A stretch of 62,992 nt of DNA, the filler included, from Candidatus Babelota bacterium (GTDB lineage: Bacteria > JAGOBX01), in assembly GCA_017999075.1 (NCBI GenBank). It is 11 parts of 11 records of this genome, joined end to end, with 100 filler letters (N's around TTAATTAATTAA, not from the genome) between each part and the next. Parts side by side here need not be neighbours in the genome. Positions count along the whole stretch, not along the records: positions 48,496 to 51,326 come from JAGOBX010000541.1; 10 more parts are not named here. One strand, 5' to 3'. The notes under the pieces are model-generated. The model was not told where the DNA came from. It saw only the letters and a list, made by a program, of their open reading frames with translations, and ran no database searches. Below are positions 2,762 to 60,276 of this stretch, in pieces (the first letter of the stretch is position 1; each line of letters opens with the position of its first letter). A program made the position numbers and the translations under genes.

Positions 2762-2783
2762 AAAATTTAGATACAGGCATAAT

Positions 2784-3179
2784 TTATACTGATTTCGGAA
2801 TAATTATTTTTATTCCAGGGCAGTCATTCTTTACATAATCAAGATATGAATCATCTTGAATAATTTTTTTCCAGTAAGGATATGTTTTGCATTGATGAGG
2901 TCTACAATCATATATTAAGCATTTATTTTTTTCTGTTAAAAAAATGCATCTGTAATCAGATTCGTTTTTTTTTATTTCTATAAGAGTTGTTTTAAGATTC
3001 TCTTTTTTAGTATATTTTTTTTTAAAATCTTTTAACGGTATTCCTAAAAAATCAGATATATTTTTTTGTTCTGTATCTGTAAGCCATACATAACCTGTTG
3101 CTCCAGAACAGCAATTCCCGCATTGAATACAATTGAATTGTATTCTGTCTGTTTTAATTGATTTTATAATTTCATTCAT
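2784..3179 (-). CDS. YkgJ-family CxxCxxCC cysteine-cluster protein
   Basis: FNCIQCGNCC, CIFL, CLIYDCRPHQCKTYPYW motifs. Confidence 0.85.
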   Translation of the reverse strand: MNEIIKSIKTDRIQFNCIQCGNCCSGATGYVWLTDTEQKNISDFLGIPLKDFKKKYTKKENLKTTLIEIKKNESDYRCIFLTEKNKCLIYDCRPHQCKTYPYWKKIIQDDSYLDYVKNDCPGIKIIIPKSV

Positions 3180-3192
3180 AATTCTGATAATA

Positions 3193-6100
3193 TTATATTT
3201 TTACCAATTTTATATTTTCTTTTTTTAATTCTTCAAACAATTCATCAACCGGAGGTTCGTAAGGTTTTATTCTTATTTGGTTGTCGAGATAAAAATAAGT
3301 TACAAAATCAGTGACGTGATCTACTTTAATTTTTGCTGTGGAAATTGTTAACCGAATTCCTGTAAAACATTTTTCACTAACACAAATTTTGCCGTCTTTT
3401 CCTTTTTCAATTATTTCAGCAAGAATTTTTCTATCTTCAACAAGTTTTTTCAAACGTTTAACAATTTCTTCATCTTGATTTCTAAGTTTATCCAGCATTT
3501 CTTCATGTTTTTCTGTAAATTCATTTTTAGCCTTTAACTCCAACAACCGTTTTATATCAAGCCGTCCGCTTTTATAAAATTTTTCAAGTGAAACAATATA
3601 TGTTTCACTTTTTTTCATTTTTTCGAAAACTTCAGGATCAGAACCAGCTTCTACAGTTGTAACAGTAGCAATTTTAGAGCCGAGAATTTTTGCAAATACA
3701 GATTTACCGGCTCTTATTATTCCGCCGACAATCAATCCTTTTCCTCCTGTCAATACCACGACATTTTGCGCGGCATTAACAACACTGTGCATCAAAGAGT
3801 TTGATACTATGACATTTCTCCTGCAGAATACCGTAGCCTGTTCAATAAAATTTGTAATCATATTGCCTTTAACTGTTATCTTGCATTTATAGTTTCCTGA
3901 AATTCCGCGTCTAACATAAAGATTATTTCCGCATTCTACAGTTGCACCTTCAATATTTGAAACATAAATATCTCCGCCTGCTTTTACACTGAATCCTTCT
4001 TTTATAGTTCCGCTTATTATAACTGTTCCGGGAAACGTTATATTCCCGGTTCTATTATCTATATTGCCTATTATATGCAAAGCTTCTTCAACATAAAATT
4101 TGTAACCTTCACGGAACGCCATACCGCTAATCTGCGCAGAAATTTTCAAACCGTCTTCTGATAATACCGCATTTTTACCTGCGCGCAATTGAAAATTTTT
4201 ACCTTTTGGCGGAGAAATTTCCTCGCCAAAAACATTGATTCCAGGAGTCCCTTCTTTTGGCGGAATTTTTTTCACTATAAGATCTTTTGACCTCACAGAA
4301 TCAAGCGGTTGAATTCCATAAATTTCTTCAAGTTGTTTTTCTTCTGAAGATTTTTCTTTATTTTGATTAACAAAAGGAAACAACAGCACTGCGTCCTGGC
4401 CAGAAACAGGATTTATTCCTTCCGAAATTAATAATTCCATCTTTTTTTTCAAATTTTTTAATGAATTTTTTATCAGGTCAAGATTCGGTTTATAAATATT
4501 TTTTTCAATAATTTTATTTTTTATCTCATCATAATCTACTGGAAGTCCACCATATTGCGGAGGAATTAAAGTTATATAAACCTGCATTTTATCAGAAGAA
4601 ATATTAAAAAAATATTTTCCGTCAAGTTCGGGTTCAGGCTGACGAGGACCTATTTTAACTTCTTCTGCCGAACTTTTTTCCATTTCATTTTTCAATATTT
4701 CCAAATCAATCCCGGAATTATAATTAAATTCCCTTAATTGCTGAATTGCTTCTTCAACTTTCGCTTTTTTCCCATTGCCTCTCGGAGGAAATGAAGTCAG
4801 CATAAGCCCTTTTATTGTATTCAATATAACAAAAAAACCGTCTAAATCTTTCCGTTCTTTTCCTTTTTTAAAAATCTTAATTACATAAGTTTGTTTTTTT
4901 AAATTTAAAAAACTTTTATTTGGATGCTGTAATATTTCATAATCAAGATCGTCTTCCGAACATTGAAAATGTTCCACTCCTTTCTGCATGCACTCTTTAA
5001 TTGAAGCTCCAGCTATCTGTATAGGATAACTATTTTTAATTTTAAAGAACATTTGCCTCAAAGCATTTTTATCTTCATTTTTTCCGATCAATATCGCATT
5101 AAGGCGTAATATTTTTTTTGACTGCGACATATATCTGTCAACATCAATAAATAATGCATTCTGAGAAGGTATATTTAAAAATTTCACAGCAAGCTGATAC
5201 AATAATTGCGAATCATATCCTTCAAAAAGAGCGTTTTTCCTTAATTTCAAGTTTTCAAAAATAACCGGTTGGCCGGATTCTGTTTTTATAGAATCATTGG
5301 AATAAATTATTTTTTCAATATCAGGTTTTACAAATCCTTCCATAACTATATTTTCAAAAGAACTTGAAAATGCTATTTTTTCATATTTTTTTTCAATAAT
5401 TTTTTCTATTCCGTCAAGAACAATCTTAACTCCTTCAACTATATTTCCGTCAACTCCGACAATCCGGCGGCCATTATTATTAATTATAGAATCAAAGGGT
5501 TTTACTTTTTCAGAAAGTTCTGTCAAAGTTTTATTAATTTGAATTATAGATTCTGTTTTTTTAGAAAATCTGGAATCAGTCTGAGGAACATTATTTTTTT
5601 TCAATTGCTCTATTTCATTCTTTAAAGTAATTAAATTCCGTTCACAGAATTTTTTTTGGTCAATAATTTTATTATATTCGTCTCTTTCATTTTTAAACAT
5701 CCCCAAATTTATAGAAATAGGTTCGCTGTCAAGCACAACTTTTGTTTTATTAGCTGGAATATATAACAGACTGCATAATTCCGAAAAATATTTTTTTTTA
5801 TGATTAACGGATTCTATGTGATTTTCTATTTGTTCAAGCCGTTCAAGTGATTTATCATCAAGTTTTTCACTTTCAATTTTTTTGCGTTCATCTTCATATT
5901 TTCTTATATCCGCATCCAAAAAAGATAATTTTTCTTTGTATCTTTTTAACACAAAAACATAATCAGCAGAAACTTCTTCTTCAGACCCAGGAGTAGAATA
6001 TTTTGCAAAATATTCGTTTATTTTATCAAAATTAATTTTAGGATATATTTCATCCGCATTTATTTTCAATGTATTATATCGGTTCTTCAAATTATCTATA

Positions 6101-13204: not shown

Positions 13205-13304
13205 NNNNNNNNNNNNNNNNNNNNNNNNNNNNNNNNNNNNNNNNNNNNTTAATTAATTAANNNNNNNNNNNNNNNNNNNNNNNNNNNNNNNNNNNNNNNN
13301 NNNN
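13205..13304. other. artificial contig linker N44-TTAATTAATTAA-N44
   Basis: Identical 100-nt linkers also at 26395-26494, 39566-39665, 42513-42612, 45460-45559, 48396-48495, 51327-51426, 54256-54355, 57182-57281 and 60092-60191. Confidence 0.99.
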
Positions 13305-26246: not shown

Positions 26247-26496
26247 CAGCTTAACCTCCGTACAAATCCTGGTTTTCTAAAAAAATAGAATTTATGAACC
26301 CTGATTCATAAAAATAAAAAAACACGCAAATAATAAAACTATTTCAAAAATACAATTATATATTTAAAAAAAATTATACAATAATATTTTATTANNNNNN
26401 NNNNNNNNNNNNNNNNNNNNNNNNNNNNNNNNNNNNNNTTAATTAATTAANNNNNNNNNNNNNNNNNNNNNNNNNNNNNNNNNNNNNNNNNNNNGT

Positions 26497-39565: not shown

Positions 39566-39665
39566 NNNNNNNNNNNNNNNNNNNNNNNNNNNNNNNNNNN
39601 NNNNNNNNNTTAATTAATTAANNNNNNNNNNNNNNNNNNNNNNNNNNNNNNNNNNNNNNNNNNNN

Positions 39666-42234: not shown

Positions 42235-42612
42235 ATTATAAATCCTCCAGAAATGCCGGACTACAATAAAATTTTAAATAATTATTCCGGCTTGTCAGGC
42301 AAATATTGTTTAAAATTTGCCAAACATAAATAATAAATGTTTTCCGTGCTGAAAAGCATAGTCATCATCATTATTATTAATTTCATTAAAATCGTCGTGA
42401 TAATTATTATTTTCTAATGAAATCAGTTTTAAATTATTTTTAATATACAATTTTTAAAGATATTAGTTTTTATGGCGTGTGGGGATTCTGCGGCGCATAC
42501 GCACATGACACCNNNNNNNNNNNNNNNNNNNNNNNNNNNNNNNNNNNNNNNNNNNNTTAATTAATTAANNNNNNNNNNNNNNNNNNNNNNNNNNNNNNNN
42601 NNNNNNNNNNNN

Positions 42613-45459: not shown

Positions 45460-45559
45460 NNNNNNNNNNNNNNNNNNNNNNNNNNNNNNNNNNNNNNNNN
45501 NNNTTAATTAATTAANNNNNNNNNNNNNNNNNNNNNNNNNNNNNNNNNNNNNNNNNNNN

Positions 45560-47366: not shown

Positions 47367-48116
47367 TTATTCATTGTCTTCAGTTTCATCAATTTCATCT
47401 TCGTCAATTTCCTCAACCTCATCGATCTCATCAATTTCTTCAGAAATATCATCATCTATCTCTAAATTGTTTTCATCAGAAATATCTTCATCTTCATTTT
47501 GTTCGATATCCATTTTTTTGACTGATATTTTTTCTGATTTTGATGATTTAATAACAGGTTTGGTTGATTGTTTTTTTGGAGCTATACACATACTTAAAGT
47601 AGAACCGTCCATTTTTAATTCCTGTTCTATTTCTGCTAATTCAGATAATGTTGAGAAAAAATTTTTCATAAGTTCAATTCCTCGTTCTGAATACATTCTT
47701 TCTCTTCCTCTGAACCGCATTGAAATCTTTACTTTATCGCCTTCATTCAAAAATTTTATAATATGTCCGCGTTTATGTTCAATATCATGTTCGCTTATTT
47801 TTGGAGTCAATTTTATTTCTTTAAGTTGCGACACTTTTTGTTTTTTTTTCGATTCTTTTAATTTTTTCTTTTTTTCAAACAAAAATTTGCCGTAATCAAG
47901 TATTTTACATACAGGCGGATTGGCATTAGGGCTTATTTCAACTAAATCAAGTTCGACGTTTTCAGCCATTCTAATAGCATCAGATAATGATACAACACCT
48001 TTTTGCTCTCCAGTTTCGCTAATAAGCCTCACATTCGGAGACATAATTCTTGAATTGATTCTGAATAAATCAGTCTTTTTAAAATTTCTATCCTGCTTTT
48101 TGATAAATTTAGAAAT
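47367..48116 (-). CDS. infC: translation initiation factor IF-3, probable ATT start, acidic C-terminal tail
   Basis: INSRI..VRLI..LDLVEISPNANPPVCKILDYGK..FRGRE; SD GGAGGTG (48129-48123) positioned for ATT at 48116. Confidence 0.93.
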   Translation of the reverse strand: MSKFIKKQDRNFKKTDLFRINSRIMSPNVRLISETGEQKGVVSLSDAIRMAENVELDLVEISPNANPPVCKILDYGKFLFEKKKKLKESKKKQKVSQLKEIKLTPKISEHDIEHKRGHIIKFLNEGDKVKISMRFRGRERMYSERGIELMKNFFSTLSELAEIEQELKMDGSTLSMCIAPKKQSTKPVIKSSKSEKISVKKMDIEQNEDEDISDENNLEIDDDISEEIDEIDEVEEIDEDEIDETEDNE

Positions 48117-48130
48117 ATTAATCACCTCCA

Positions 48131-48352
48131 TAAAAAAAAACGGCAAGAATCATATCTTGCCGTTTATATACACTTTCAACTTAATTTTGTAAAGGATATA
48201 TAATAAACCTGCAATTTAAAACAAAAAACAAAACTTTTAAATTACAGAATTATTTATAAAACCCTTTTATAATTCAAATAAGTTAAACCCTCAAAATACT
48301 TGATTTTGTAAATCAAGATATACCGGGTGAGAAGTAATAAACGACTTCTTCT
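48131..48352 (-). ncRNA. L20-leader-like ribosomal protein leader with attenuator
   Basis: 5' AGAAGTCG..ACTTCTCACC motif and terminator aaacggcaaga-tatgat-tcttgccgttttttttt immediately before the infC SD. Confidence 0.7.
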
Positions 48353-48695
48353 TAAATTTTAAATATTAGTTTATAAGTTAAAAGAAAAATTGTTANNNNN
48401 NNNNNNNNNNNNNNNNNNNNNNNNNNNNNNNNNNNNNNNTTAATTAATTAANNNNNNNNNNNNNNNNNNNNNNNNNNNNNNNNNNNNNNNNNNNNAAAAA
48501 GCAAAAAGCGTGTTTGAAATGTAAATAAATTTTTTTGATAAATTATTGGGTTAAATGTCAATAAGTAATTGAATCCGAACTATACGTTCGGATTTTTAGA
48601 AGTTTTCTATTGTTTTTTATGCGAAATTTCGAAAACTTCAGAAACCAAGATTTTGCTAATGCTTAATACTGGTTAAATGATTGAGAGGTAATTTT

Positions 48696-49655
48696 ATGTG
48701 GATTTATTGGGAAAGAATTGTTGATTATATTGTATATTCCGCAATGGGATTAGAGAAAAACGCATTGTCAGGAGCATTACATTTTTTTATTTATGATACT
48801 GTTAAAATTTTTTTATTATTAAGCGTTATAATTTTTATAGTATCTTTTTTGCGGACATATATTACTCCTGAAAAGACGCGCAGAATACTCGGCGGTAAAA
48901 ATGTTTTTTTAGGAACTATTCTCGCATCAATATTGGGAATTTTCACTCCATTCTGTTCCTGTTCAGCTATTCCTTTATTTATTGGATTTGTTGAAGCAGG
49001 CGTTCCGCTTGGTGTTACATTTTCGTTTTTAGTCGCGTCGCCGATGATAAATGAAATAGCGGTCGGGCTTCTACTTTCAACTTTCGGCGCAAAAGTTATG
49101 GTAATGTATATTGGAACTGGATTGCTTATAGCAATAATCAGCGGAAATATAATTTCATATTTAAAATTAGAGAAATATGTTGAAGATTTTGTATATAAAA
49201 CTAAGGTAGGCGCGGGTATGCCTGAAACAGGATATACAATGGGCGGCAGGATACAATACGGATTAAATTACACTGGAGAAATAATTAAAAAGGTCTGGTA
49301 TTATATTTTAATTGCAATCGGTATTGGCGGATTTATGCACGGGTTTGCTCCTGCGGGTGTATTGTCGAAATGGGTCGGCGCAGGCAATATTTTTGCAGTA
49401 CCGTTGGCTGTAATTGTCGGAGTTCCTTTGTATGCAAATGCTGCCGGAATCATACCTATTGTAAAAGAACTTACTCGTCTCGGCGTTCAGACCGGCACCG
49501 CATTAGCGTTTATGATGGCAGTAACCGCATTATCTCTGCCTGAATTTATTATTCTGAAAAAAGTATTGAAAATCAGATTATTGCTTACTTATTTCGGAAT
49601 TATATCAGCCGGCATTATATTTGTTGGTTATTTATTTAATTATATTATGAAATAA
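48696..49655 (+). CDS. DUF318/ArsP-like permease
   Basis: FFIYDTVKI, TPFCSCSAIPLFIGF, SPMINE, GVPLYANAAG, LSLPE; SD GAGAGG before ATG 48696. Confidence 0.92.
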   Translation: MWIYWERIVDYIVYSAMGLEKNALSGALHFFIYDTVKIFLLLSVIIFIVSFLRTYITPEKTRRILGGKNVFLGTILASILGIFTPFCSCSAIPLFIGFVEAGVPLGVTFSFLVASPMINEIAVGLLLSTFGAKVMVMYIGTGLLIAIISGNIISYLKLEKYVEDFVYKTKVGAGMPETGYTMGGRIQYGLNYTGEIIKKVWYYILIAIGIGGFMHGFAPAGVLSKWVGAGNIFAVPLAVIVGVPLYANAAGIIPIVKELTRLGVQTGTALAFMMAVTALSLPEFIILKKVLKIRLLLTYFGIISAGIIFVGYLFNYIMK

Positions 49656-49691
49656 AAGAACACTTTTAAAAAAAATTGGAGGTAATGAAAA

Positions 49692-49925
49692 ATGAAAATT
49701 GAAGTTTTAGGGACAGGTTGTGCAAAATGTAAAACGCTTTTTAATGCTGCTCAGGATGTTGTTAAAGAATCAGGGCTTGCATGCGAAATTGATAAAGTCG
49801 AAGACATTACAAAAATTATGGGATATGGCGTTATGATGACTCCTGCGCTTGTTGTTGATGGAGAAGTAAAAGTTGCGGGCAGAATTCCATCTAAAGATGA
49901 AATAAAAAAATGGATAAAACCATAA
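49692..49925 (+). CDS. small redox-active disulfide protein 2 (MTH895-like thioredoxin)
   Basis: MKIEVLGTGCAKC..YGVMMTPALVVDG. Confidence 0.93.
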   Translation: MKIEVLGTGCAKCKTLFNAAQDVVKESGLACEIDKVEDITKIMGYGVMMTPALVVDGEVKVAGRIPSKDEIKKWIKP

Positions 49926-50028
49926 GCATAGTTTCATTTAAATTATGAATTAAAAACCATGAAAAAAATGAATTTTTCGGTAATTTTTTTCAAAATAGAA
50001 TTTTACATTTTTTCAGGAGATGATTTTT

Positions 50029-50403
50029 ATGTCAGAAAAAAACAATTGCTGCTGCGGCGGCCAAAAAACTTTAATAATGGCTTGCTCAGGCGGGTCTAAT
50101 GTTGGTCAGGTTTCAAATAATGTAATGATTGAACTTGATAAAGCAGGAAAAGGCAGCGCGTATTGCCTTGCCGGAGTAGGCGGAGATTTATCAGGATTTA
50201 TTCAATCAACAAAATCCGCTAAAACTATTTTGATAGATGGCTGTCCTGTTGGCTGCGCTAAAGCGGTATTTAAGCGGCATAATTTATCTGCGGATAAATA
50301 TTTTGTAATTACAGATTTGGGAATAGAAAAGAATCATAATTTCGAAAAACTTTCTGAAGAAACAAAAATTGCGTTTGAAAAAATTGTTAAAAAATTGGAT
50401 TAG
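50029..50403 (+). CDS. DGC-domain putative zinc-binding protein
   Basis: ACSGGSNVGQ, CLAGVG, IDGCPVGCA; SD AGGAG favours ATG 50029. Confidence 0.9.
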   Translation: MSEKNNCCCGGQKTLIMACSGGSNVGQVSNNVMIELDKAGKGSAYCLAGVGGDLSGFIQSTKSAKTILIDGCPVGCAKAVFKRHNLSADKYFVITDLGIEKNHNFEKLSEETKIAFEKIVKKLD

Positions 50404-50414
50404 TTTTTAGGCAA

Positions 50415-50447
50415 TTAACCACCAAAGGCACCGAATGACACCGAAAA
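50415..50447 (+). repeat. 33-bp periodic repeat, copy A (upstream of the GxxExxY gene)
   Basis: ttaaccaccaaaggcaccgaatgacaccgaaaa; 29/33 identical to 50874-50906. Confidence 0.85.
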
Positions 50448-50465
50448 GAAAGGAAAAGAAATAAA

Positions 50466-50837
50466 ATGGATGAAATTTACGAAAAAGAATTAAGTGATAA
50501 AATAATTGGCTGCGCTATAGAAGTTCATAAAGAATTGGGATTTCGATTTTTGGAAAAAGTATATGAAAATGCAATGATGATAATTTTCAGAGAAAAAAAT
50601 ATTTATGCGGTTCAGTAAGAAAGTATTAAAGTCTATTTTCATAATGAAATAGTAGGTGATTATTCGCCTAATATTTTGGTTAATAATAAAGTGGTCATTG
50701 AATTAAAAACTGTCAATGTAATTACAAATAAACATAAAGCACAACTGATAAATTATTTAAAATCTACAGGTTTGAAAGTAGGATATATTTTAAATTTTGC
50801 TAATGAAACTTTAGAATTTAAAAGAATGGTTTTTTAA
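50466..50837 (+). pseudogene. GxxExxY-family (PD-(D/E)xK-like) protein with premature TAA at codon 51 (not in the ORF track)
   Basis: MDEIYEKELSDKIIGCAIEVHKELGFRFLEKVYENAM..AVQ*ESIKVYF..VGDYSPNILVNNKVVIELK..HKAQLINYLKSTGLKVGYILNF..LEFKRMVF; TAA at 50616-50618. Confidence 0.88.
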
Positions 50838-50906
50838 TTCGGTGAGGTTAGGTCAACTCGGCGGTAAAAATTCTTAACCACCGAAGACACTGAATAACAC
50901 CGAAAA
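50838..50906. repeat. inverted copy (50838-50867) plus direct copy B (50874-50906) of the periodic repeat
   Basis: ttcggtgaggttaggtcaactcggcggtaa followed by ttaaccaccgaagacactgaataacaccgaaaa. Confidence 0.8.
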
Positions 50907-50925
50907 AAATAGGAGGAAAAAATTT

Positions 50926-51326
50926 ATGCGCTTTTTAAAAATTTTATTAATTGTCCTTTGGATGGCTTCTACTTTTACAGGTTGTGAACACGGAACAAAT
51001 ATTCCAGTTGACAGTCAATCAGACCAGATGAATGCAGCGGTAAATCAGCAAAATGCCGATGTCCAACCACAAAATCAAACACTTGCTGCTACAGAACCGG
51101 TAAAACAAAATCCTGCAAATACGCAATCCGCTAAAGCGGTTGAAAATAAAATCAAAGTAACATTTATTGAACTCGGTTCAGTAAATTGCATTCCTTGCAG
51201 AATGATGCAGCCGGTAATGAAACAAATTGAAGAAAAATATAAAGATAAAGTCAAAATTATTTTTTATGATGTATGGACTCAGGAAGGTCAGCCATTCGGA
51301 CAGAAGTACGGAATACAGGCGATACC
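50926..51326 (+). CDS. thioredoxin-family lipoprotein, 3' end missing
   Basis: Signal peptide with lipobox FTGC; ELGSVNCIPCRMMQP; YGIQAIP. Confidence 0.88.
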
Positions 51327-51426
51327 NNNNNNNNNNNNNNNNNNNNNNNNNNNNNNNNNNNNNNNNNNNNTTAATTAATTAANNNNNNNNNNNNNNNNNN
51401 NNNNNNNNNNNNNNNNNNNNNNNNNN

Positions 51427-54255: not shown

Positions 54256-54355
54256 NNNNNNNNNNNNNNNNNNNNNNNNNNNNNNNNNNNNNNNNNNNNT
54301 TAATTAATTAANNNNNNNNNNNNNNNNNNNNNNNNNNNNNNNNNNNNNNNNNNNN

Positions 54356-57181: not shown

Positions 57182-57281
57182 NNNNNNNNNNNNNNNNNNN
57201 NNNNNNNNNNNNNNNNNNNNNNNNNTTAATTAATTAANNNNNNNNNNNNNNNNNNNNNNNNNNNNNNNNNNNNNNNNNNNN

Positions 57282-60091: not shown

Positions 60092-60276
60092 NNNNNNNNN
60101 NNNNNNNNNNNNNNNNNNNNNNNNNNNNNNNNNNNTTAATTAATTAANNNNNNNNNNNNNNNNNNNNNNNNNNNNNNNNNNNNNNNNNNNNAAACTTGTT
60201 CGATAAATATCCGGTTTAAATAATATAAAGATAAAGTGATTTTTAAAATTTAAGAAAAGGAATAAGGTAAATTTTT

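Follow-up and report, generated by a model that had tools for sequence, protein, structure and literature searches.

A dead GxxExxY nuclease gene between phased repeat arrays in a Candidatus Babelota genome, apparently the remnant of a widespread intergenic cassette

The analysis of a 62,992-nt stretch of Candidatus Babelota bacterium DNA (assembly GCA_017999075.1; hereafter the window) revealed a gene of the GxxExxY (PDDEXK_3) nuclease family set between short periodic repeats, in the spacer that separates a DGC-domain gene from a thioredoxin-domain gene. The gene is inactivated, and the locus is very probably a dead member of a family of repeat-flanked GxxExxY cassettes. Taking all the evidence together, we lean towards reading it as the decayed form of an intergenic cassette that is widespread and apparently selfish and has a mechanism operating on DNA. 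An earlier note on this DNA, made from the sequence alone, had guessed at a small mobile or intervening-sequence-like element. The core of that guess is supported by an anatomy that recurs across phyla, by filled and empty sites and by decayed copies.

Two head arrays lie in the (+) orientation at the locus. Array A (50415..50450, + strand) opens with TTAAC as its outer boundary, followed by three 7-nt units, CACCAAA at 50420 and CACCGAA at 50429 and 50439, at spacings of 9 and 10 nt. It stops 15 nt short of the GxxExxY start codon (ATG), where a head array is found in the other cassettes described below, and it aligns with the upstream array of the most closely related locus, L026. Array B (50874..50909, + strand) repeats the plan, TTAAC being followed by CACCGAA (50879), CACTGAA (50888) and CACCGAA (50898), and is identical to A at 31/36 positions. 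The two repeats reported in the earlier note are therefore real (29/33 over the shorter span considered there), as are the CACCGAA-like units at a 9-10 nt period, three of which are present in each array. All five CACCGAA sites of the window are inside the locus; 3.5 would be expected, so that their clustering is unusual and their number is not. A strict three-unit pattern was matched by A and B only in the whole window.

The inverted copy, a degenerate tail array (50838..50865, - strand), begins 0 nt after the TAA stop codon (50835-50837), that is, on the next base, as had been noted before. Its inner unit (50838-50844) is an intact reverse complement of CACCGAA, the middle unit (50848-50854) is destroyed and the outer unit (50857-50863) carries two changes, its reverse complement being CGCCGAG. 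Only 17/28 positions agree with B. Half of the mismatches (5) fall in five spacer positions and the other 5 within units, which does not agree with the former statement that they are found mainly in the spacers. Nevertheless, the Smith-Waterman inverted-repeat score of the locus, 14.5, is just over the 95th percentile of control genes (14.0), and a tail array is present where the cassette architecture places one.

The tail array and B can form a hairpin (50838..50904, + strand) with a loop at 50866-50876, in which the outer ends of both arrays face the loop. Its energy is -24.4 kcal/mol (z -3.49), and none of 200 shuffled sequences was as stable. The inverted copy had been proposed to pair with either A or B. 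Both RNA duplexes are stable (-22.0 kcal/mol with A and -26.9 kcal/mol with B), but when the whole 531-nt region was folded the inverted copy paired with B and not with A.

We conclude that A and the eroded inverted copy form the two ends, head and tail, of a single cassette that is now dead. For array B the preferred reading is a head array belonging to a second unit next to it, or else a remnant of recombination between arrays; it is probably not a target-site duplication. B and the tail array meet outer end to outer end, so they are not a doublet of the type left by deletion of an open reading frame (ORF). A parallel for B is found in L006, where a second head array after the GxxExxY gene leads into another ORF closed by a tail array. 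This region (L006 5360-6085; also L003 944-1950) has the second head array directly after the GxxExxY stop codon and an ORF of ~215 amino acids in L006, longer in L003; the tail array that closes it in L006 lies just before gatB, and the start codon of L003 reads ACG in L006. No Pfam match was found for this second ORF in either locus. It is plausible, as suggested earlier, that a clean DGC-thioredoxin junction would result if A recombined with B.

The GxxExxY gene itself (50466..50837, + strand) was recognized by profile matches and by alignment with homologues. It is preceded by a Shine-Dalgarno-like AAGGA (50450..50454, + strand), read from the sequence, 11 nt 5′ of the ATG at 50466. For profile comparison the gene was translated through its stop codon, with X at codon 51. 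It matched TIGR04256 with 121.6 bits (cut-off 35) over profile positions 1-116 of 116, and PF13366 (PDDEXK_3) with 120.2 bits (cut-off 22), which places it firmly within the family. The gene had been described as an ORF, but it is not open: an in-frame TAA (50616-50618) occupies codon 51, at the position of a nearly invariant Gln. In addition, Gly27 of the motif is replaced by Arg (CGA, 50544-50546), so that the motif reads RFLEKVY, and the catalytic Asp69 is replaced by Asn (AAT, 50670-50672), with E79-L-K81 retained. Each of the 13 aligned homologues has the usual residue at the three mutated positions: Q at 51, G at 27 and D at 69. The window copy thus lacks the intact frame, the motif and the full set of catalytic residues of the family. 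Recoding of TAA was considered and ruled out, since TAA terminates 31 of the 38 window ORFs of at least 200 amino acids and the codon-51 TAA is accordingly a true stop. With its gene dead, the window copy cannot be an active element now.

A genome scan with the GxxExxY protein family yielded 584 confirmed matches, and the best 80 loci were retained (designated by L numbers). Their hosts include Acidobacteriota, Planctomycetota, Pseudomonadota, Bacteroidota, Bacillota, Chloroflexota, Cloacimonadota, Methanoperedens archaea and others. The same anatomy was found across phyla: a repeat array, a Shine-Dalgarno sequence or start codon, the GxxExxY ORF and an inverted array right 3′ of the stop codon. 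A typical upstream array is TTAGCCACGAAnnnACACGAAnnnnCACGAA, with its reverse complement directly 3′ of the stop. To quantify this we aligned by the Smith-Waterman procedure the 180 nt upstream of each gene with the reverse complement of the 163 nt downstream, using 1176 other ORFs of the same loci as controls. The median score was 22.75 for the 80 GxxExxY loci against 9.5 for the controls (Mann-Whitney p=1e-37); 62/80 loci exceeded the 95th and 54/80 the 99th percentile of the controls. The possibilities that the repeats are unique to this locus or that other GxxExxY genes lack such flanks, which the earlier note had regarded as fatal to its proposal, are thus mostly not realized, as 62 of the 80 loci have the flanks. 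Moreover, the rare CACCGA unit recurs in L026, the locus with the closest protein (58% identical), whose arrays can be aligned with A, B and the inverted copy. A test for exact 5-mer periodicity, which 39/80 loci passed and the window failed, proved overly strict and was replaced by these alignment scores. In an independent set of plasmid-borne GxxExxY genes from cultured organisms, 8/8 had unit arrays, in varied configurations.

Arm geometry was measured in the 57 loci scoring at least 18, with 23 loci omitted. Median arm length is 46 nt; in the median case the head ends 8 nt before codon 1 and the tail starts 5 nt after the stop. In Sphingomonas (L086) the GxxExxY ORF runs through its tail array. 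Units could be chained in 45 of these 57 loci, to which the following statistics refer. Of 166 unit spacings, 126 had a period of 10 nt, 31 of 9 nt and 9 of 11 nt, and 35/45 loci had three units in both arms. Position by position, the unit (consensus C-R-C-N-R-A-T/A) shows an identity of 93-100%, whether the two arms or successive units are compared (93-99% between arms for unit positions 4-6), as against 34-44% for the spacers between successive units within an arm. A search with the strict three-unit pattern found 172 arrays in the 635,468 nt of the 80 loci, against 0-2 in five shuffles. The majority of these (126/172) were no more than 200 nt from a GxxExxY ORF, and the remaining 46 include ORF-less (+)(-) doublets. 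As in the window, many of the arrays are degenerate or consist of two units. Where both neighbours of the cassette were found (65 loci), they were co-directional with it on both sides in 47.

Units differ among loci (CACGAAT, CACAGAT, CACGGAT, CGCGGAT, CACCGA and others). When typed by its three variable positions, the unit was the same in both arms in 40/45 loci, with nine types represented; random re-pairing of arms gave a mean of 12 and a maximum of 21. We compared the unit classes with a protein tree of 80 sequences, using 44 loci (L064 was dropped, its consensus being out of register). Unit class changes only 5 times on the tree, compared with a mean of 14.8 in shuffles, and none of 1000 shuffles was as low. 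Host phylum is scattered on the same tree (24 changes), with bacterial and archaeal members mixed.

Evidence for mobility was obtained from comparisons between loci. L011 and L033 share host genes on both sides at 79-88% DNA identity, and their cassettes differ in unit type and encode proteins from different halves of the tree. Conversely, the ORFs of L044 and L078, and those of L041 and L062, are ~79-80% identical at the DNA level but have unrelated flanks. At L009 a second full GxxExxY copy with a different unit is located 3 kb away, both copies lying within 5.7 kb, and N- or C-terminal remnants of GxxExxY genes are found beside the copies of L074 and L054. ORF-less (+)(-) doublets with arrays 14-127 nt apart were detected in L001, L017, L030, L035 and L075. 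In L030 the GxxExxY gene has upstream of it a tandem series of 11 head arrays, one every 42-43 nt, and downstream of it several tail arrays (4479-4975 and 5383-5740); further arrays are seen between neighbouring sugar-epimerase-like genes of this locus.

The clearest contrast of filled and empty sites is the fabD-fabG junction, which holds a cassette in Sphingomonas parapaucimobilis and is empty in S. paeninsulae, where the two genes are ~33 nt apart. In the eight other two-piece matches listed (H11-H18 and H25) the fabD-fabG span is ~440-460 nt shorter than in the query. Distant homologous junctions are also empty: the L026 site when compared with L034/L040, and nuoF-nuoG of L031 when compared with L060. 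In several lineages, however, the cassette keeps its site, so that residence at one site can be long. Close GxxExxY homologues were mostly found on very short contigs, often 0.5-3 kb, and the window contig is 2.8 kb. Such short contigs would be the expected effect of repeat-flanked multi-copy elements on assemblies.

The protein has the features of a nuclease, in agreement with its previous assignment to the PD-(D/E)xK nuclease-like fold. Across 74 sequences no variation is seen at D69 or K81, and almost none at E79 and Q93; the set of family residues is E30, D69, E79-x-K81 and Q93-x3-Y97, which we take to be a RecB-type pattern. The AlphaFold2 model has a mean predicted local distance difference test score of 95.5. 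Its best fold matches in the PDB are Cas4 SSO0001 (template modelling score 0.57-0.60), lambda exonuclease, an uncharacterised restriction-endonuclease-like protein and Hjc resolvases; tRNA-splicing endonucleases match weakly (probability 0.5-0.8). A search of the PDB by sequence gave no meaningful match. Prediction of a homodimer returned a score of 0.00, which is no verdict and counts neither for nor against one. The family comprises 30,568 representative clusters at E<=1e-3. Large numbers of GxxExxY paralogues are known. About 32 of the best 150 family representatives (for example P0122-P0126) are 250-280 amino acids long and contain two GxxExxY domains. These could be fusions or read-through products of tandem cassettes, and they hint at a dimeric working unit.

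These observations establish the architecture of an intact element. It is ~0.45 kb long, with a gene for a PD-(D/E)xK nuclease of ~120 amino acids between two inverted arrays, each usually of three 7-nt units (C-R-C-N-R-A-T/A) with a 10-nt period. The head array ends just before the start codon or overlaps it, the tail array starts within a few bases of the stop, and the whole sits between co-directional host genes and rides on the host transcript. For its mechanism the following model can be suggested. The arrays may act as terminal recognition sites on DNA. The array period of 10 nt is the repeat of B-DNA; every unit would offer a binding site on the same helix face, in all likelihood to the nuclease that the element encodes. 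The nuclease would cut at or near the arrays, with the result that the cassette is moved or copied, and the ORF-less doublets may be non-autonomous derivatives. These would relate to full cassettes as REPINs, the hairpin-forming doublets made from REP (repetitive extragenic palindromic) sequences, relate to the REP-associated tyrosine transposases (RAYTs). We favour recognition of the units on DNA by a protein, as in REPIN/RAYT, over an RNA stem that is processed. Conservation at the 10-nt period is limited to the 7-nt units and the spacers are free, which fits sequence-specific protein binding better than a maintained stem; moreover, the spacers are not kept complementary and, as shown below, mismatches have no G·U bias.

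A number of observations weigh against this model. Eighteen of the 80 loci scored below the 95th percentile of the controls, and under the strict pattern only 34/80 have a (+) array upstream together with a (-) array downstream. Several loci have other configurations, namely (+)ORF(+), (-)ORF(-) or doublets on both sides. When the two arms are compared their spacers are 51-64% identical, above the within-arm background of 34-44%, and some selection for pairing is therefore possible. Neither a target-site duplication nor the precise ends of the element could be defined. In same-site pairs the ORF mostly diverges only somewhat faster than its flanks, which fits long vertical residence as well. 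The protein tree was built by a quick method and is poorly resolved (7/77 branches starred). Agreement of unit type with the tree is also the outcome of plain co-inheritance: shared descent alone would give this signal, so that it demonstrates linkage of arrays and ORF rather than recognition. That the nuclease recognises the arrays is what we infer.

The main rival is an element that works at the level of RNA, similar to an intervening sequence (IVS). The head and tail arrays would pair in the operon transcript, the stem with its regular internal loops would extrude the ORF, and a cut in the stem, made by RNase III or the GxxExxY protein, would set the RNA of the cassette free or insulate it. 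We consider this unlikely, and retain it as the main rival because of the spacer identity above background and of extended complementarity in three loci. The arms are complementary and bracket the ORF tightly, and since the cassettes are co-directional with their neighbours (47/65) both arms are transcribed and could pair. The window pairings are stable as RNA, and tRNA-splicing endonucleases are among the weak fold matches. In L007, L010 and L025 complementarity reaches beyond the arrays: TAAGAAG at the apparent upstream stop codon is matched by CTTCTTA abutting the downstream ATG, and the upstream stop and the next start might sit at the foot of one stem. There is also a precedent in the ORF-bearing IVSs of 23S rRNA, which, according to PMC4990558, have complementary ends cut by RNase III. 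Genes of the 23S_rRNA_IVP family with flanking inverted repeats of their own were found in the same loci.

If pairing in RNA were maintained, an excess of G·U among the arm mismatches would be expected. The counts were 97 for G·U and 88 for A·C (p=0.56), and 317/502 mismatches were transversions. The suggestion that the protein recognises bulged stems in RNA or single-stranded DNA received no support. Conservation is confined to the units, the strict 10-nt period would have no obvious role in a stem, and (+)ORF(+) and (-)ORF(-) loci cannot extrude the ORF. The D, ExK and QxxxY residues and the best folds are those of metal-dependent DNA nucleases. Rfam, at the gathering threshold, detected only a tRNA in 10 loci, and at E<=1 detected nothing on the window contig.

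A second alternative is a cassette system of the integron type, in which arrays or doublets are sites for a recombinase encoded elsewhere, GxxExxY is the commonest cargo, and A and B flank one cassette. It would account for direct-repeat layouts, such as (+)ORF(-)(+) in the window, (+)GxxExxY(+)ORF2(-) in L003, L005 and L006 and doublets on both sides in L080 and L045, and for the 22/80 loci whose direct-repeat scores exceed the control 95th percentile; arrays can also bracket other ORFs and host genes. The hairpin of the tail array with B would resemble an attC site roughly in size and in its bulged shape. The attC sites of integrons have the core sites RYYYAAC and GTTRRRY and lie beside an IntI integrase platform. 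GTTAGGT at 50847-50853 fits GTTRRRY, but no RYYYAAC partner is present in B. No recombinase gene, and no integrase ORF in particular, was found on the 2.8-kb window contig, which is short and therefore gives weak evidence against a platform; the 80 loci were not systematically screened for a recombinase. Most arrays are close to GxxExxY (126/172 within 200 nt). Unit type follows the GxxExxY protein tree, which is unexpected for passive cargo. What is met most often, moreover, is one cassette flanked by ordinary operon genes and no array beside an integrase. We regard this explanation as improbable.

Slightly less probable still is that the arrays serve the host, as REP-like intergenic repeats that make operon mRNA more stable, partition it or are bound by a host protein, with GxxExxY domesticated, vertically inherited and not mobile. 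The same site is indeed kept in L008/L016/L017, in L018/L019/L023 with L005/L006, and in L034/L040. Arrays take up the whole intergenic spacer, often supplying the start codon or abutting the next Shine-Dalgarno sequence, and those of L030 pepper the intergenic regions of one gene cluster. However, the distribution is patchy, with an empty site within one genus, and pseudogenes and fragments occur. Near relatives are found in unrelated hosts and sites, bacteria and archaea being mixed on the tree, and different variants can occupy one site (L011, L033). Finally, a local accident, in which a one-off duplication of the spacer gave A and B and the inverted copy arose by chance, would suit the closer similarity of A to B (31/36) than of the inverted copy to B (17/28) and the lack of a further copy in the 63-kb window, but is effectively refuted by the recurrence of the arrangement and unit grammar in 80 unrelated loci and by the L026 arrays, which align with all three repeats.

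The closest known systems in logic to the DNA-level cassette that we favour are REPIN/RAYT and the ORF-bearing rRNA IVSs. The locus has no Y1 transposase and is not in rRNA, and therefore fails the defining features of both. REP sequences and REPINs are described in PMC3116915 as short intergenic repeats and inverted hairpin doublets whose repeat type is paired with a RAYT lineage. The likeness consists in a small nuclease gene flanked by inverted repeats, with ORF-less copies scattered in intergenic space, and in hairpin doublets, represented by the tail array with B in the window and by the five ORF-less cases listed above, although the 63 kb of the window genome hold only A and B. In contrast to RAYTs, the GxxExxY protein is a PD-(D/E)xK protein of ~120 amino acids and not of the HUH/Y1 type, and its gene is multi-copy and usually inside operons; no other ORF is present inside the window cassette. 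In contrast to REP sequences, a cassette arm has three 7-nt units with a 10-nt period and is not a single imperfect palindrome. REP repeats have a GTAG or CGTC head, according to PMC3733652; neither is present in A, B or the inverted copy.

The 23S rRNA IVS (S23p/23S_rRNA_IVP, PF05635) resembles the cassette in being an insert of ~0.45 kb with complementary termini and an ORF of ~120 amino acids of unknown function, carried on the host transcript. Its ORF tends to decay and a mobile-element role has long been suspected, as stated in PMC4990558. The cassette differs in its position between protein-coding genes, in its ORF family and fold, and in lacking a sign of selection for RNA pairing beyond the modest spacer identity discussed above. 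The same source describes a Coxiella IVS with a near-perfect stem of 28 bp, unlike the cassette termini, which are unit arrays with unconserved spacers. Genes of PF05635 are located a few kb from GxxExxY cassettes in L009 (1400-1759, +) and L001 (8760-9170, -); their own inverted repeats are AT-rich and of a different repetitive kind.

In IS200/IS605-type elements a single small nuclease acts on structured or repeated ends, as described in PMC6006769. The cassette shares with these, and with miniature inverted-repeat transposable elements, a very small size and putative miniature non-autonomous derivatives. It differs in enzyme superfamily and in having inverted arrays of direct 7-mers at its ends rather than subterminal hairpins, and its mobility is deduced from sequence comparison. 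A comparable arrangement was noticed in L060, where a gene for a DUF559 (PF04480) endonuclease domain (2821-3210), also of the small PD-(D/E)xK type, is wedged between nuoD and nuoE with inverted repeats of its own. It belongs to another family, its GC-rich repeats (2780-3215) are unrelated, and it is a single case; it appears to be the second family in which a small nuclease gene forms a cassette within an operon.

No description of repeats around GxxExxY genes was found in a literature search that left most subscription journals outside its reach, so that absence from print is unproven. In the same search the term GxxExxY was very rare, no account of the biology of the family was found and PDDEXK_3 was given as of unknown function; the array sequences, searched as text, matched only unrelated primers. 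The GxxExxY-array architecture looks like an apparently undescribed family of tiny selfish DNA elements. A more far-reaching proposal, which we make tentatively, is that GxxExxY cassettes could be an unrecognised class of autonomous minimal mobile elements of bacteria and archaea. In these a nuclease similar to Cas4 and lambda exonuclease would read three helically phased 7-bp sites per inverted end, mobilise a ~0.45-kb cassette between operon genes and spawn ORF-less hairpin doublets, as a PD-(D/E)xK counterpart of RAYT/REPIN, with the unit code co-diversifying with the protein.

As to the surroundings of the locus, the window is a pseudomolecule of contigs ordered by decreasing length and joined by ten N44-TTAATTAATTAA-N44 linkers (13205-13304, 26395-26494, 39566-39665, 42513-42612, 45460-45559, 48396-48495, 51327-51426, 54256-54355, 57182-57281 and 60092-60191). 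Genes on either side of a linker are therefore not genome neighbours. The contig of the locus spans 48496-51326 (2,831 nt) and carries four co-directional host genes, with the GxxExxY gene between the last two. These encode an ArsP-type permease (48681-49655), a Thioredoxin_3/ArsE-like protein (49692-49925), a DGC-domain, putatively zinc-binding protein (50020..50403, + strand; Pfam PF08859, E 6.3e-30) and a thioredoxin-domain protein (50926..51326, + strand; PF00085, E 5.7e-7). The DGC stop codon is 11 nt 5′ of array A. The thioredoxin gene, with its ATG at 50926, is preceded by a Shine-Dalgarno AGGAGG (50911..50916, + strand), read from the sequence; both this and the AAGGA of the GxxExxY gene had been pointed out before. 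Its product has a hydrophobic, lipoprotein-like N-terminus. The DGC, GxxExxY and thioredoxin genes are all on the + strand and the cassette fills the intergenic spacer. Insertion within an operon, as formerly stated, agrees with the four co-directional genes visible, but the contig ends inside the thioredoxin gene, which is truncated there. DGC proteins 81-86% identical to that of the window exist; a tblastn search of plasmids with the window DGC protein gave only matches of up to 35% identity, and a tblastx comparison of the window flanks with the 80 loci gave no match. On a neighbouring contig, the IF-3 gene (47367-48146, - strand) encodes an Asp/Glu-rich C-terminal tail of ~65 residues past the IF3_C domain.

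GxxExxY/PDDEXK_3 is a very large family, and the arrays give its nuclease a concrete candidate substrate. They would account for GxxExxY genes breaking assemblies and sitting in conserved operons such as fabD-fabG, gatCAB and nuo. For annotation, they explain many spurious N- and C-terminal extensions, through start codons inside arrays and read-through as in L086. If the nuclease reads a diversifying 7-bp code, it would be of interest both as a type of mobile element and as a small DNA binder of programmable specificity. If the mobile-element reading is true, it would provide a function for a family of more than 30,000 sequence clusters.

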